Positions 38,659 to 47,220 of a stretch of DNA of 64,000 nucleotides are shown here, in pieces. Position 1 is the stretch's first letter; every line of letters begins with the position of its first letter. The DNA is from Candidatus Marinacidobacterales bacterium (lineage in GTDB: Bacteria > Acidobacteriota > Vicinamibacteria > Marinacidobacterales > DATDRI01). Below the pieces are notes generated by a model. That model ran no database searches, was not told the origin of the DNA, and saw nothing but the letters and a program-made list of their open reading frames with translations. The stretch spans positions 1,376,001 to 1,440,000 of the forward strand of contig OZ245365.1 in NCBI GenBank assembly GCA_965226495.1, given 5' to 3'. Both the position numbers and the translations under genes were made by a program.

Positions 38659-40326
<1,668 letters not shown>

Positions 40327-40388
40327 CTACCTCCTGATATATGTGATGGTGGGTTGGCGCGCCCGAAGGGTGCGCGAGGACCCGCCGG

Positions 40389-40679
40389 TTACTCGAGAAT
40401 TCCGAGTACCTCGTCTTCTCTGACGATAAGATACTCGACATCTTCCAGTTTAATTTCAGAGCCGGAATACTTTCCGACTAGAACTTTGTCGCCAACTTTG
40501 ACTTCCAGCGGAACCTTTTGTCCGTCTTTCAGCACCCGGCCTGAGCCCACCGCGATAACTTCCGCAGTCAAGGGCTTTTCCTTGGCGCTGTCGGGGATGA
40601 TGATGGATCCCACTTTTTTCTCTTCCTTATCCTCGAGACGCTTAACAACGATGTTTTCTTTGATGGGTGTGATCTTCAT
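40389..40679 (-). CDS. groS: Co-chaperonin GroES
   Basis: IIIPDSAKEKP, AVGSG, VKVGDKV, KYSGSE. Confidence 0.98.
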   Translation of the reverse strand: MKITPIKENIVVKRLEDKEEKKVGSIIIPDSAKEKPLTAEVIAVGSGRVLKDGQKVPLEVKVGDKVLVGKYSGSEIKLEDVEYLIVREDEVLGILE

Positions 40680-40740
40680 TGTCTAGTTCTTCCTCCTTTT
40701 GCAGTGAAATGCGAACGGCCCTGCAGGGTTTTCTTGCGGC

Positions 40741-41187
40741 TCAGCCGCCGATGGGAATGTGCTTGCTGTTTTTGTCGACCTGCTTGGGCATGATGACCAT
40801 CAGGATGCCGTCCTTGAACTCGGCCTTGACCTTCTCGGAGTCAATTGTTGTGGGTAGCGTAAAGGTCCGGTTGAACGGGCCGAAGGCTCGTTCCATTCGA
40901 TGGAACTGTTCCTGATGGATCGCCTCTTTCATGCGCCGCTCGCCCTTGAGCGAGATCCGGTTGCTGTCGATACGAAGCTCGATGTCACTTTGATCGACAT
41001 CTGGCAGCTCGGCCTTCAACACCAGGCTCTCCTGGGACTCGTAAAGATCGACCGGGGGAGACCAGGTACCAACTCCGGACACTTCCGTTTGGGAGCGAGT
41101 GCGAGAGAAGGTCTGATCGAACAACCGGTTCATACGCTCTTGGAGCGCAACTAGCTCACGAAACGGATCCCAGTGGGCGACGGGCAT
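40741..41187 (-). CDS. Hsp20/alpha-crystallin small heat-shock protein
   Basis: WDPFREL, WSPPVD, ERAFGPFNRTFTLP, AEFKDGIL. Confidence 0.95.
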   Translation of the reverse strand: MPVAHWDPFRELVALQERMNRLFDQTFSRTRSQTEVSGVGTWSPPVDLYESQESLVLKAELPDVDQSDIELRIDSNRISLKGERRMKEAIHQEQFHRMERAFGPFNRTFTLPTTIDSEKVKAEFKDGILMVIMPKQVDKNSKHIPIGG

Positions 41188-41282: not shown

Positions 41283-41404
41283 GCAAAAAGCTTAGTGGCT
41301 TTGATTTAGATCAGGAGCGCCCCTTTTCGAGCTATTCTACTGATAGTAAAGGACATAATTGGCGTGGCAACAGGTCGGTTTTCTGGCTGGGGAACCGAGC
41401 CTCA

Positions 41405-41433
41405 TTGACAGCTAGCTTCACCTAGCCCATAGT
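41405..41433 (+). promoter_or_regulatory. Sigma70-type promoter of archease-rtcB (near-leaderless)
   Basis: TTGACA-17-CATAGT, 8 nt before the GTG start, no SD. Confidence 0.6.
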
Positions 41434-41441
41434 CTGTTTCG

Positions 41442-41855
41442 GTGCCCTACCGAGTGCTGGACCACACGGCCGACTATATGGTCGAGGTCGCGGCGGAAGG
41501 AAAGCCGGAGCTCTTCTCCGAGGCCGCGAGAGCCCTTTTCGACATCATCACCGATTTGGAAACGGTAGAACCGCGGGAATCGGTCTCGCTCAGCGTCGAA
41601 GCCGAAAGCAGCGAAGAGCTCCTAGTGTCATGGCTCACCGAGCTTCTCTTTCTGTATGAGGACCAAGGATGGTTGTTTTCTCGATTCGATCCAAGGCTAG
41701 TGGGAGATCATCGGTTCGAAGCCGAGGCGTGGGGTGAGAAGCTCGATCCCGAGCGCCATCCCATTGATCGAGAGGTGAAGGGGGTGACGTACCATCGTAT
41801 GGCATTGGTGAGGCAGGGAAAACTCCTCAAGACGACGATCGTTTTCGATCTCTGA
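41442..41855 (+). CDS. Archease
   Basis: [22 protein letters not shown]-terminal FDL. Confidence 0.93.
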
Positions 41856-41875
41856 AGCGTTCGAAAGGATACGCG

Positions 41876-43327
41876 ATGACAAGCAAAGTCAAGATTCAGA
41901 AAATCGACGACAACCGTTGGCGTATCCCGAGGGAAGGGAAGATGCGCGTCGAGGGTTTGGTCTTCGCGAGCGAGGCTTTCGTCTCCACCCTTCGCGGAGA
42001 TCCCGCCCTCGAGCAAGTCGCCAACGTCGCCGAGCTCCCCGGTATCGTTGGCCGGTCCATCGCGATGCCGGATATTCACTGGGGCTACGGTTTCGCTATC
42101 GGGGGCGTCGCCGCTTTCTCGCCGGAAGACGACGGCGTGGTTTCGCCAGGGGGGGTGGGTTTCGACATCAACTGAGGCGTCCGGCTGCTGCGCTCAGGTC
42201 TGAGTCGCAAGGACGTGGAAGGAAAACTACCGGAGTTGGTCGACACTCTCTTTGCCAATATCCCAACCGGCGTCGGGGCGCACCGTCGCGACCTAAAGCT
42301 CCCTCAGTCTGAGTTGCGACGAGTTCTCACGCGAGGTGCGGGTTGGGCAGTAGCCAACGGCTACGGTACCGACACCGACCTCGAGTACATCGAAGAAGGA
42401 GGCTGCCTCGAAGGTGCGGATCCAGACGAAGTCAGTCCCCGCGCCATCGAACGCGGGCGTCCGCAATTGGGGACCCTCGGTTCGGGGAATCACTTTGGCG
42501 AGGTCCAGTACGTCGCGGAAATCTACGACCAAAAGCTTGCCGATGCGCTGGGTTTATTCCCCGGACAGGTGACGGTCTCGATCCACACCGGTTCCCGCGG
42601 GCTCGGCTATCAGGTGTGTGACGACTTCTTGAAGATCATGCTGCGCGCTTCCGCCAAGTACGGCATCGAGCTTCCCGATCGCCAGCTTTGCGCTGCACCT
42701 CTGACCTCTCCAGAAGCGAAGCGTTATCTTGGTGCCATGTCGGCGGCGGCCAACTACGCTTTCGCTAACCGGCAAATGATCACGCACTTGGTGCGCGAGA
42801 GTTTCGAGAGTGTGCTGGGGATTGGCCGCGGGAAACTTGACCTCGGTTTGGTTTACGACGTTTGCCACAATATCGCCAAGTTCGAGGAGCACCAGGTCGG
42901 AGGCAGAAAGAAAAAACTATGCGTCCACCGTAAGGGAGCGACGCGAGCCTTTCCGCCTGGCCATCCCGAGATTCCCTCCGCCTACCGCGCCGTCGGTCAA
43001 CCGGTCCTCATCCCTGGGGACATGGGACGCTACTCCTATGTGTTGGTAGGCACGGAGCGCGCCTATCAGGAGACATTTGGAAGTACGTGCCACGGTGCCG
43101 GACGGCGCATGAGCCGTCGCCAGGCGCGGAAGACCGCCGGCAAACGCGCCATCGTTCGCGAGATGGCAGAGCAAGGGATTATCGTCCGAGCCTCCGGGAG
43201 AGCCACGTTGGTGGAGGAGATTCCGGAGGCTTATAAAGATGTTGCAGAAGTCGTGGATGTGGTCGAGGGAGCAGGCATCAGTCGGAAGGTTGCGCAACTC
43301 CGGCCGATGGGAGTCATTAAGGGCTAG
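41876..43327 (+). CDS. rtcB: RtcB RNA 3'-P/2',3'-cyclic phosphate:5'-OH ligase, with in-frame TGA at codon 100 (candidate selenocysteine)
   Basis: [73 protein letters not shown]; both ORF halves are in one frame. Confidence 0.95.
42176..42216 (+). promoter_or_regulatory. Putative bacterial SECIS element
   Basis: Hairpin directly 3' of the TGA: GCGUCC/GGACGU, UGCG/CGCA, CUCA-GGUC-UGAG; AGGUCU top as in E. coli fdhF. Confidence 0.75.
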
Positions 43328-43524
43328 CCAGGTGCGCTGGACGATTCAGGGCACGCTGTGCGCAATCACGCACTAATTTCTCAGCGTCATCACCGGATCG
43401 ACCCTCGTTGCCCGACGTGTCATTAAGGGCTAGCCAGGTGCGCTGGACGATTCAGGGCACGCTGTGCGCAATCACGCACTAATTTCTCAGCGTCATCACC
43501 GGATCGACCCTCGTTGCCCGACGT
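43313..43524. repeat. Perfect 106-bp tandem duplication
   Basis: 43313-43418 = 43419-43524; the unit covers the 3' ends of rtcB and of the convergent permease. Confidence 0.92.
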
Positions 43525-44486
43525 GCCGGCAAATAGGAAGCTAAGCCGGCGACCAGCAGCAACGCAAGCGGCGTCACCGCAAACGCCATGGGGTCGATGG
43601 GTTGGACTCCGTAGAGTAGGGTTGCCAAGACTCGCGCCAAGATGAAAGTCATTGGCGCTCCGAGGGCCAAACCGGCGACGGTCAGAGCCAATTCTCTGCG
43701 CATGACTCCAGAAAGCAGGGAGGAACGCGGCGCGCCAAGGGCCATTCGGATCCCGAGCTCATGTGTTCTCTGTTTCACTACGTAAGAGAGAACTCCGTAG
43801 AGACCGAGGCCGGCCAGGAGAAGACCGAAAAACGCGAAGCACGCGAGCACCGAAGCGTAGAGCCGAGGGCGTGCGACGATGGTCGAGAATGCGGTGTCCA
43901 ACGAGGCGACCTCGTGAACCACGCGGGACTCCAATTCTCTCGAGGCCTTGCCAACTTGAACGGTGAGGGTTTCCGGCTCGACGGAGCCCCTAACTACCAA
44001 GCCCATCGAGCTCCAAGGAAATTGCGCGTGAGGTACGTAGACCTGAGGCTCAACGATCGCGGCTGGTCCGAAGTGGCTGATATCATCGACCACACCGACG
44101 ATCTCGCGGGCAAGTAGCTCGTCTCCGGTGAACGTGATGTCGAAGACGATGCGGCGTCCGATCGGATCCCGGTCGGCGCAGTGCCGGCGCGCGAGCTCAC
44201 GGCTGACGATCACCGCCGGTGTCGAATCGGCCGAGTCACGATTGTCGAACCATCGTCCTTCGATGAGCCGCGCCCCCAGCGTTTCGAAGAACCCCGGGCT
44301 AATGACGTGCGTTAACGCTCTTGGGGTTTCCGACGCCGGTGGTGTCGGATCTCCCTCCACCGCATAGTCTGCTCGGTCGGCTTGTTTGGCTACGCGAATT
44401 CATAAAGTAAGTGCAACACAGCTCCCGGATGAGGTGACCTGGAATGTGCCACGATTCCTCAAACAACCAAGAATGGGGACTCGCTA

Positions 44487-45506
44487 ATGACTTATTACCA
44501 GATCACCTCGGAAGAACGCTACACCATCGCGGCGCTGCGACGGGAGGGATTTTGCTCGGCCGAGATCGCGCGGCGCCTGGGGCGCCACCGGAGCACCATC
44601 TCGAGAGAGGTCAGGAGGAACAGCTCACCTAGTGATGGATGCTACCGGCCGAGCAAGGCCATCGAGAGAACGAACGGACGACGCTCGCGGTCTCGCCGGA
44701 ACCAGTACTTCACAAAGGCCGACTTTGCCCTGGTGGAGAAGAAGCTTAAGGCCGACTGGAGCCCAGAGCAGATCTCCGGCCACCTGCGCCTTCACGGCGA
44801 GCTCTCGATCAGCCACGAGACGATCTACACCCACGTTTGGCGGGACAAGGAGGCCGGAGGACATCTATACCGCCACCTTCGATGCTCGCCCAAACTTAGA
44901 CGCAAGCGCCACAACAGCTACGACAGCCGAGGCCGCCTGGCCGGGAAGCGTCACATCTCCGAGCGGCCGTCTTGTATCGACAAGCGCCGTGCCGTTGGCC
45001 ACTGGGAGATTGACACCGTGGTAGGAAAAGACGCGCCGGACTGCGTCACCACGCTCGTGGAACGAAAGACGGGCTATGCGCTGATCGGCAAACTGTCCGA
45101 CCGCAGCATGTTCGGCACTAGCCAGCGAACGAAGATGTTGCTCCGGCGGGTGCCGGATCAGGTCAAGACCATCACCGCGGACAATGGCACGGAGTTCCAC
45201 GACTACGAATCCGTCGAGGAAGCGACCGGCGTCAAGTTCTACTTTGCAACTCCCTATCACTCATGGGAGAGAGGCAGCAACGAGAACTTCAATGGATTGC
45301 TACGACAATACCTGCCGAAGCGCACCAGCCAAGCAGCGCTCACGCAACGCCACTGCGATGGTATCGCAAAGAAGCTCAACACACGGCCCCGCAAGAGGCT
45401 CGGTTACCGCACACCGGAGGAACGTTTCCATGGGCAAGAGGCTCGGTTACCGCACACCGGAGGAACGTTTCCATGGGAACTAACGAATGGTGCGCTTCAA
45501 ACTTGA
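44487..45506 (+). CDS. IS30-family DDE transposase
   Basis: STISRE, WSPEQI, GHWEIDT, TADNGTEF, WERGSNENFNGLLRQY, RPRKRLGY. Confidence 0.96.
   Translation: MTYYQITSEERYTIAALRREGFCSAEIARRLGRHRSTISREVRRNSSPSDGCYRPSKAIERTNGRRSRSRRNQYFTKADFALVEKKLKADWSPEQISGHLRLHGELSISHETIYTHVWRDKEAGGHLYRHLRCSPKLRRKRHNSYDSRGRLAGKRHISERPSCIDKRRAVGHWEIDTVVGKDAPDCVTTLVERKTGYALIGKLSDRSMFGTSQRTKMLLRRVPDQVKTITADNGTEFHDYESVEEATGVKFYFATPYHSWERGSNENFNGLLRQYLPKRTSQAALTQRHCDGIAKKLNTRPRKRLGYRTPEERFHGQEARLPHTGGTFPWELTNGALQT
45391..45477. repeat. 43-bp tandem duplication in the transposase 3' end
   Basis: gcaagaggctcggttaccgcacaccggaggaacgtttccatgg twice. Confidence 0.92.
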
Positions 45507-47220
45507 AGTCACACTACGTAAGGCACCTGCAGGGTCGCGCCAACGGAGCTCACTCCCGGGAGCCGTCTCACATCTCGTAAGAGATTCTCGAAGAACGCGG
45601 CCCTCCGCGCCGGTTCGGGGTACTGGCGGAAGGGCAACGAGACGCGCAGAGAAACGACTTCCTCGGGCTCGAAGCCGGGATCTTTCTGCTGGAGGAAAAT
45701 GAAGCTGTGGATCAACAGGCCGGCGCCGATCAGTAGCGGTAGTGCGATGGTGACTTGACCCACGACGAATAGATCCTTGAATCGACTACCCGCCGAGCTG
45801 GTGTTTTTTCCCGCCTCTCTGAGGAAGCCGGCGGCAATATCTCCCCTCAACATCAGGAAGCTTGGTAAGAGGCCAAAGACGACGGTCGACCCGAGGGCCA
45901 GCACCATAGTGAAGCTCAGAACCGCATGGTCCACGCCGAGCCCCTCCGCGCGCGGGAGACCTGGCGGTAGCAAGGTGGATAGCGCCGGAAGTACCCAGAG
46001 CACGATGGTCAGGGCCAGCGCGGCTCCGGCGAGAGCGAGCAACAGGCTCTCTGCCAACACTTGGCGCACCAGATCACCCCGGCCGCCTCCCAGCGCCAAC
46101 CGAATCGCGATCTCCCGCCGATCGCTCATGATGCGAGAGAGCATGAGGTTGGCGATGTTGGCGCAGGCGATGAGGAGGACGAACCCCACCGCGGCCTGGA
46201 GCAGGTAGAGTCCCGGCCTCGTTTGGCCGACGAAAGAATCGAGTACCGGTTCTACCGACACTTTCCACCCGGCGTAGGTCTCAGGGAAGTCTTGCGCCAG
46301 CCGATGGCTTACCACTTGAAGGTGGGTCGTTGCTGCCCCAATGGATACACCGGGCTCGAGTCGGCCGAAAGCGGTGTAGATCCGAAAGTGGGGATTGCTG
46401 GGATTTTCTCCCGCTCGCAAGGCGACCCATAGCTCGGGACTCGCCTCGCTTCCCAGATCGTGGCCGTAGATCTCCGGAGGAGCAACCCCGATCATGGTGT
46501 GATCGATTCCACCGAGGTTGAGCACTTGACCCAGCGCGCCGGCATCGCCGCCCAGTCGCTCGAGCCAGAACCGGTGGCTCACCACGGTGAGCGGCAGACT
46601 ATCCGCGGCCTCGTCTTCCTTGCCAAAGAATCTCCCGGCGGCCGGTCGAACGCCGAACACGTCGAAGTAGTTGGCGGATACGACTCCGTGGTTGACTTGC
46701 TCGTTCCACTGGCTGGTGCGCCACATGACACCGAAATAGGTCGAGAACGCGAGATCGGAGAAGCCTTCGCCCTCCCGCCGCCACGCGCGGGCCTCCGAGA
46801 CGGATGTCCAATCGAGATGGCCTTCGGCCTCGTTGAGGGAGAGGATGCGCACCAGCCGATCCGGATCTATGTAGGGGAGTGGGCGCAGCAAGATGGAGTA
46901 GACGATGCTTGAAGACCAAGGTGGTGGCGGAGATACCGAGGGTCAGGACCGAGACCACTCCTAGAGCGAAGCCGGGTGCCCTGCGGAGCCTTCGCCAAGC
47001 GTAGCGAATGTCGTTCGAGAGGAATCTCACCATGTCACTGTCGATTTGCAATAACTATACCGCGCGGAACCCTCGTGAACCGCCGAGAATCGCGGTCGAC
47101 CCGTCACCAACTCTGGTCGATGCCCGCCATCGGGACGACCGGCTCCCGAAAACGGACAGCTTTGTTCGCCGGCGGTTTTGACAACAACTTCCGCACCGGG
47201 GTATAGGGAAGCTTCACTGC

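Follow-up and report, generated by a model that had tools for sequence, protein, structure and literature searches.

Why does a gene that otherwise encodes an intact RtcB RNA ligase carry UGA at the codon of a bridging metal ligand, and how is this codon read? In the window, which is the whole 64,000-nucleotide stretch of DNA analyzed here, the rtcB coding sequence occupies positions 41876..43327 on the forward strand and specifies 483 amino acids when its single internal TGA is read through. The read-through product matched PF01139 over the complete model (1-426/426, 590 bits, E = 4.1e-177) and aligned end to end with the structures of T. thermophilus TTHA1785 and P. horikoshii RtcB. The in-frame UGA, a predicted selenocysteine codon, is codon 100 (42173..42175, forward strand) and is aligned with Cys98 of P. 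horikoshii RtcB. Cys98 bridges both Mn ions, its alanine mutant is inactive, and the residue is oxidizable to sulfonic acid (PMC9745838). The remaining active site is intact, with D97, H206, H237, H331, and H406 of the window protein matching the P. horikoshii metal ligands Asp95, His203, His234, and His329 and the nucleophile His404 (PMC9745838). The bridging cysteine expected of an RtcB is replaced in the window gene by TGA, for which selenocysteine is predicted. This TGA is a variant character at the bridging position, not a loss of membership in the RtcB fold family.

The archease gene (41442..41855, forward strand; PF01951 over residues 3-137, E = 2.5e-40) is located upstream of rtcB and separated from it by a gap of 20 nt. 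Archease is a known activator of RtcB. An archease-like match adjoined rtcB in 76 of 87 loci with long flanks (86 TGA-type loci and the single Cys revertant of the family), compared with 20 of 42 Cys loci. The window gene shares with Cys-type, archease-assisted RtcB (TTHA1785, PDB 2epg; PH1602, PDB 1uc2/7lfq; human RTCB) the full-length PF01139 domain, the other ligands, the His nucleophile, and the adjacent archease, and differs in that the Cys98 codon is UGA with a candidate SECIS element, predicting selenocysteine. Divergent from the archease-rtcB pair (38659-41187, reverse strand) are genes which, by resemblance, we take to be groEL, groES, and a small heat-shock protein gene. On the other side, an exact 106-nt tandem duplication (43313-43418 and 43419-43524, together 43313-43524) begins in the last rtcB codons. 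The five relatives for which the 3' flank of rtcB was read do not have this duplication, and it could be an insertion scar or an assembly artifact. Further on, an ABC-permease-like gene on the reverse strand is present in two pieces (43479-44360 and 45509-46891, within 43479-46891). Between them lies a 339-aa transposase-like ORF (44487-45506, forward strand), presumably IS30-like by resemblance, with a short repeated segment at the transposase end.

The first explanation to be weighed is a sequencing or assembly error that changed TGC to TGA. At this codon, a single base separates the window gene from its nearest Cys homologue, and the duplication at the end of rtcB would fit a faulty assembly. 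However, contigs of runs X5 (41400-42435) and X6 (41924-42885), which come from two different studies, showed zero differences from the window, and TGA was present in five of the six full-length family orthologues (79 to 95% identity) and in at least 119 other genomes. Error is thus refuted, and its probability is negligible. Short metatranscriptome contigs from two runs were identical to 41816-42022 and 42598-42799, and none of them spans the UGA.

The distribution of the codon was investigated by motif scans of a genome collection, which queried TGA or TGN at this codon only. TGA at codon 100 of rtcB was found in at least 119 genome loci. By their titles among the matches listed, these comprised 29 Thermodesulfobacteriota, 27 Nitrospirota, 23 Acidobacteriota, 10 Myxococcota, 6 Pseudomonadota, 5 others, and 19 unassigned. 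TAA or TAG at codon 100 was not found among full-length relatives. Where a UGA-type frame closed inside its locus, it was full length in 85 of 88 cases and stopped early in three, and each catalytic motif was kept in 84 to 85 of the 85 full-length frames. When 301 genomes spread evenly over the window's phylum were sampled, the RtcB motif was matched in 89; the codon was TGA in 10 of these and TGC or TGT in 79. A midpoint-rooted FastTree phylogeny, calculated for 178 of 227 loci (short or duplicate rows were dropped) with the UGA codon and the next 15 residues masked, showed at least 13 changes between UGA and Cys; this tree cannot separate gain from loss except in nested cases such as locus L022. 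The neighbors of a same-class locus on this tree suggest that the source of the window is probably an acidobacterium. Viral contigs gave no match to the TGA-type rtcB motif, and the RtcB proteins of 216 plasmid records were all below 60% identity. Three UGA-type genes stood apart: L161 belongs to another motif subtype and has no hairpin, L233 is a lone divergent UGA gene, and L093 has a stop 133 codons after the UGA and no selA match in its genome. Some of these three may be nonsense mutations. The selenocysteine codon of the window (42170-42175) also coincides with the intein site of other RtcB genes. The intein-containing NCBIfam RtcB model matched from residue 99 onward, and Cys98 is named as the splice junction of P. 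horikoshii RtcB (PMC4150793).

Directly after the UGA, the sequence-only reading had described an fdhF-like SECIS hairpin, and all its arms were found in the sequence at the positions given. The lower stem pairs GCGUCC (42177-82) with GGACGU (42211-16), the outer pairs of the upper stem are formed by UGCG (42189-92) and CGCA (42206-09), and CUCA (42193-96) pairs with UGAG (42201-04) to close the apical loop GGUC (42197-42200), with U42205 bulged and the apical GU at +23/+24. The hairpin was also the favored fold. In ViennaRNA, the minimum free energy structures of 42170-42230 (-18.6 kcal/mol) and 42176-42216 (-16.2 kcal/mol) contained both the lower stem and the apical hairpin. These structures pair G+17 with U+30 and leave no bulged U42205; the register originally drawn appeared when +12..+42 was folded alone (-9.5 kcal/mol). 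Among four folding windows, the apical hairpin formed in all, and the lower stem formed in three and was replaced by another pairing in 42140-42240.

Stability alone was rejected as evidence because folding of dinucleotide shuffles gave no signal: the hairpin was not unusually stable (z = -0.70), and 43 of 200 shuffles folded as well. Relative to alternative synonymous codings of the peptide encoded here, the window hairpin was unusual in its upper part (p = 0.01), and the chance of a 4-bp stem with a GGU loop under the codon usage of the genome was 0.004. It had also been proposed that the A/T-ending loop codons are atypical for this DNA. This holds for TCA, the rarest serine codon (5.8%), but not for GGT, which is ordinary (20.1% of glycine codons). 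An Rfam scan of 41800-42600 with E values up to 10 returned no SECIS family and two chance matches. The same 8-nt top followed other TGAs of the genome in 23 matches, and only rtcB has long frames and a known motif. The SECIS model itself is permissive, being passed by 309 of 907 coding-like TGAs in the window genome. A single pass therefore means little, and the comparison across the family decides.

For this comparison, 132 UGA-type and 91 Cys-type genes remained after duplicate removal. The SECIS model was passed by 100 of the 132 UGA genes, 87 of them with the loop at +21..+23, versus 12 of the 91 Cys genes, in which the positions were scattered. Among class-I UGA genes, the upper stem was present in 102 of 107, in one of two registers (a 4-nt loop with a 3' bulge or a 5-nt loop without a bulge), and G at +23 was present in 94 of 107. 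In the 91 Cys genes, the corresponding numbers were 8 for the stem, 29 for G at +23, and 4 for the two together. When the stability of +13..+36 was tested against synonymous recodings, 73 of 105 UGA genes reached p <= 0.05, compared with 3 of 90 Cys genes. The possibility that the hairpin is equally present in Cys-encoding homologues thus failed, since the hairpin occupied the corresponding site in only 2 of 91 Cys genes.

Covariation was also examined, and compensatory changes were found in the upper stem of UGA-type genes. In an alignment of 101 sequences, 79.5% of cells in the upper helix were paired, with two-sided changes at four of eight pairs. The count of pairs with two-sided changes was no higher than in shuffles; the count of cells with such changes and the covariation score were higher than in shuffles. 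In the 24 genes with a 5-nt loop, two neighboring pairs swap G-C/C-G/A-U and A-U/U-A with all 24 genes paired and the encoded residues altered; this subset was chosen by pairing, so the percentage paired is circular and only the two-sided swaps count. On the tree, nine independent UGA/Cys pairs were available, and the hairpin followed UGA in 5.7, opposed it in 0.0, and showed no difference in 3.3 (median p = 0.031, range 0.031-0.219).

The same data delimit the element. The lower stem (arms 42177-82/42211-16, spanning 42177..42216 on the forward strand) can form and had been drawn as part of the SECIS; it was rejected as such because of its low conservation, with 61.6% of cells paired versus 79.5% in the upper helix. 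All six pairs were kept in 9 of 105 UGA genes, compared with 4 of 90 Cys genes, which shows no UGA-Cys difference, and the lower stem is probably incidental. The bulged U42205 was not conserved either: only 10% of class-I homologues have U there, and 79% have C. From these comparisons we infer that the signal is restricted to the upper stem-loop (42189..42209, forward strand), a predicted SECIS core with a 4-bp stem (42193-96/42201-04) and outer pairs (42189-92/42206-09). Within it, the apical loop GGUC (42197..42200, forward strand; +22..+25), which contains the conserved G at +23, is the predicted SelB contact.

These results bear on a second alternative, in which the UGA is a true stop, rtcB is either split (99 aa and 370 aa) or a pseudogene, and the codons for RSGLSR give rise to the hairpin incidentally. 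The public protein collection stores exactly the 99-aa and 370-aa pieces of the window rtcB, and no entry there corresponded to the read-through protein when Sec was written as Cys. The ordinary stability of the hairpin relative to dinucleotide shuffles also suits this alternative, as does the use of TGA as the commonest stop of the genome (679 of 1649 long ORFs). However, a split would remove the essential bridging ligand together with residues 100-113, and it does not agree with the occurrence of TGA at this one codon in several phyla, with the frames that stay intact downstream, or with the repeated U/C changes on the tree. Nor would a by-product of coding be expected to beat synonymous shuffles and to covary. 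We regard a true stop as extremely unlikely.

Two Cys-type genes, L022 (genome G006) and L225 (genome G170), keep the hairpin at +22. L022 is the nearest Cys homologue mentioned above; its product is 88% identical to the window protein. It is nested among six UGA-type family genes with tree support of 1.0 and 0.97, and its genome retains selA, selB, and tRNA-Sec. L022 is probably a recent Sec-to-Cys change with a leftover SECIS, and both genes are likely Sec-to-Cys revertants that can serve as natural controls. The hairpin had been thought to support recoding independently of the stop codon. For the single hairpin this does not hold, because the closest Cys relative keeps it; for the family-wide contrast between UGA and Cys genes, it does. 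On that contrast, the reading of the hairpin as a SECIS for a selenocysteine UGA is supported, with the corrections to its lower stem and bulge.

In addition, 27 UGA-type genes, 26 of them titled Nitrospirota, have a different, longer hairpin instead of this one. The longer hairpin showed a strong synonymous signal (median z = -4.39 over +12..+54), and 19 of the 27 genes form one tree clade. It lies at +12..+51 with a variable purine-rich loop near +28..+36 (L065, L067, L068, L072-L074, L080-L082, and other Nitrospirota-titled loci) and is possibly a lineage-specific SECIS class.

Next, we compared the element with known SECIS elements. In the bacterial model, the apical loop has 3-9 nt, the upper stem 4-16 bp, G stands at the first or second loop position and is usually followed by G or U, the UGA-to-loop distance is 16-37 nt, and the folding energy is -7.5 kcal/mol or lower (PMC13188914). 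The rtcB hairpin is directly 3' of an in-frame UGA within the coding region and has a 4-nt loop, GGUC, on 4 bp with another 4 bp below a 1-nt bulge, a spacing of 21 nt, and an energy of -9.5 (+12..+42) or -16.2 kcal/mol (41-mer). The structure is selected in UGA-type and not in Cys-type homologues, apart from the two Cys exceptions. It therefore shows no essential difference from the bacterial in-ORF consensus as drawn in Fig. 2A of PMC13188914. What differs is the host family, which is not listed as a selenoprotein, the existence of two registers, and the different hairpin of the Nitrospirota-titled homologues.

The likeness to E. coli fdhF (taken from NC_000913.3) was confirmed for the top of the hairpin, in which 8 nt including the apical GU are identical. 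This top is at +17..+24 in fdhF and at +20..+27 in rtcB, which is shifted by 3 nt, or one codon, away from the UGA. In fdhF the upper stem starts 11 nt from the UGA with GU at +20/+21, whereas the rtcB stem starts at +14 with GU at +23/+24, and 9 of 17 hairpin positions of fdhF match rtcB. SelB binding to fdhF needs the 5' bulged U17 and G23, and the lower region of the element matters little (PMC8659212). The equivalent of U17 in rtcB is a paired G and the rtcB bulge is 3'; U42205 was rejected as its counterpart because of its 3' location and because most homologues have C there. The unconserved lower stem of rtcB resembles the little-needed lower region of fdhF described in PMC8659212. As judged from these alignments, the rtcB element is fdhF-like in its loop only.

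We then asked whether the genome could decode UGA as selenocysteine. It has selA, selB, selC (tRNA-Sec), and selD, the last with its own TGA, and its SelB ends in SelB winged-helix domains. The tRNA-Sec gene scored above the Rfam cut-off (70.9 vs 47 bits) and has a long variable arm and a G before the CCA end, conserved in five relatives. In all six family genomes read (L011, L175-L179), G faces A at the eighth position of the acceptor stem of this tRNA. A second UCA-anticodon tRNA call (L012; G000:C1:176351-176447) was only the 3' part of tRNA-Sec, at 45.6 bits and below the cut-off. L012 sits 2.4 kb downstream of the full tRNA-Sec gene, between a 134-aa ORF, which immediately precedes it, and a 392-aa ORF. 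It resembles an attachment-site duplication derived from an element that had inserted at selC. As TGA is the commonest stop, the code is therefore not reassigned, and genome-wide UGA reassignment was rejected on this basis and because the UCA tRNAs are tRNA-Sec and its partial copy.

Cys-charged UCA tRNAs occur in a few bacteria, and a third alternative is that the UGA is recoded through the same hairpin to cysteine, or that Sec and Cys are both inserted. The two UCA-anticodon calls would allow it, and the self-cleavage of an engineered Sec enzyme (PMC4150793) would make Cys chemically safer. The calls, however, are tRNA-Sec itself and a partial copy, and maintaining a costly UGA with its hairpin in over 100 genomes would be pointless when TGC encodes Cys. 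Insertion of cysteine is thus very unlikely.

In the phylum sample, selA was present in 10 of 10 TGA genomes versus 60 of 79 Cys genomes. Among 50 TGA genomes tested from the scan of at least 119 loci, 48 had selA (45 over the cut-off and three partial) and two had no match. selB over the cut-off was not found in G001 and G004 (91% and 73% complete). Because selA is common in the phylum and the genomes are related, this co-occurrence gives modest support.

The other selenoprotein genes of the genome were also considered. Fifteen candidates were picked by motif from a genome-wide read-through list, and in 14 of them (L273-L286) the TGA lay inside a domain of a catalogued selenoprotein type, namely formate dehydrogenase, AhpC/redoxin, deiodinase-like, CMD/AhpD, thioredoxin, rhodanese, or DUF3179. 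In the remaining candidate, C1:1737995, the Pfam domain begins only downstream of the TGA, and this candidate was therefore rejected. The predicted selenoproteome is large: besides selD, it includes at least 14 additional catalogue-type Sec genes, most of them split by the logic of gene callers. As the sequence-only reading had suggested, their hairpins were compared with that of rtcB, and most loops start at +18..+23, which brackets the +22 of rtcB. They share loop position and G-loop with rtcB, not hairpin sequence.

Taken together, these results make it very likely that the hairpin works as a bacterial SECIS. Codon 100 would then specify selenocysteine, and translation through it would yield the complete RtcB RNA ligase of 483 residues. 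In the proposed mechanism, SelB with selenocysteyl-tRNA would be recruited by the GGUC loop 21 nt from the UGA, and the ribosome would insert Sec at UGA 100. In the resulting protein, selenium would replace the sulfur that bridges the two Mn ions, and the enzyme would presumably act as an archease-assisted RtcB, which ligates RNA 3'-phosphate ends to 5'-OH ends in a reaction that requires GTP and Mn. More speculatively, selenium may be favored because a selenolate would be fully ionized and would resist the irreversible oxidation that inactivates Cys-type RtcB. The pKa of selenocysteine is lower, and this residue withstands irreversible oxidation (PMC13188914); oxidation of the bridging cysteine is described as the weak point of RtcB/RTCB (PMC13247085). 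Selenocysteine and selenium are absent from the accessible main text of the latter paper.

A stable Sec-RtcB is not a given, because engineered P. horikoshii RtcB with Sec98, made in E. coli, cleaved itself near the Sec (PMC4150793). Sec could accordingly be inserted and the product then be cut close to residue 100, or translation could usually end at the UGA, which would give a selenium-dependent on/off switch for RNA repair and not a catalytic upgrade. The natural genes share the Asn-Sec-Gly context of the cleaved enzyme. In addition, the window gene was the single rtcB found in a search of the genome, so ligase supply would depend on selenium. Several relatives, however, carry a second, E. 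coli-type rtcB with Cys. In the comparison of Sec- and Cys-type proteins, no residue was found that is unique to the Sec types and might prevent such cleavage, and Cys248, invariant in Sec types, occurs in 61% of Cys types as well. We consider such a switch unlikely, and insertion of Sec into a working ligase is the preferred reading.

Sec-RtcB was sought in current catalogues of selenoproteins. It is absent from Table 1 (119 families) of the 2026 review PMC13188914, which in its accessible part has no RtcB or ligase entry. RtcB, ligase, and splicing were likewise not found in the available main text of BSepDB (PMC13326102), in the main text and four supplements of deep-Sep (PMC12013277), or in the main text of SelCysML (PMC13745706). 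NCBIfam 20.0 has no Sec-RtcB model, and its matches were Cys-type or intein-containing RtcB models only. In the openly accessible literature on RtcB with selenocysteine, selenoprotein, or SECIS, the engineered P. horikoshii U98 variant (PMC4150793) was the only relevant item. The hairpin is a known kind of signal, and the putative selenoprotein family that it marks is uncatalogued. Sec-RtcB would be a widespread selenoprotein family missing from the current catalogue.

Selenocysteine as a metal ligand is known from the Mo/W site of formate dehydrogenase and from [NiFeSe] hydrogenase, for which protection from over-oxidation is the proposed benefit (PMC13188914). The predicted RtcB is similar in placing Sec where a metal-binding Cys would be, and differs from these redox enzymes in that it catalyzes non-redox nucleotidyl transfer at a binuclear Mn site. 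Thiol-redox proteins make up most of the prokaryotic selenoproteins listed, and if the prediction is true, Sec bridging two Mn ions in an RNA ligase would be a new use of selenium. The predicted Sec falls on the residue whose oxidation is a known weak point of RtcB/RTCB. A natural Sec-RtcB would also conflict usefully with the report of a self-cleaving engineered Sec-RtcB in PMC4150793. The window gene and its Cys orthologue, with codons one base apart, form a natural Sec/Cys pair with which to test why evolution picks Sec. In practice, more than 100 genomes carry an rtcB TGA, and gene callers split the window gene in two. More broadly, and with somewhat less than even confidence, RtcB may be a natural, widespread non-redox selenoenzyme with a selenolate-bridged Mn pair, which has undergone at least 13 gain or loss changes and uses at least two unrelated SECIS designs. 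It may then be a bacterial answer to the oxidation sensitivity that animals meet with PYROXD1, and genomes with a single rtcB would tie RNA repair to selenium.
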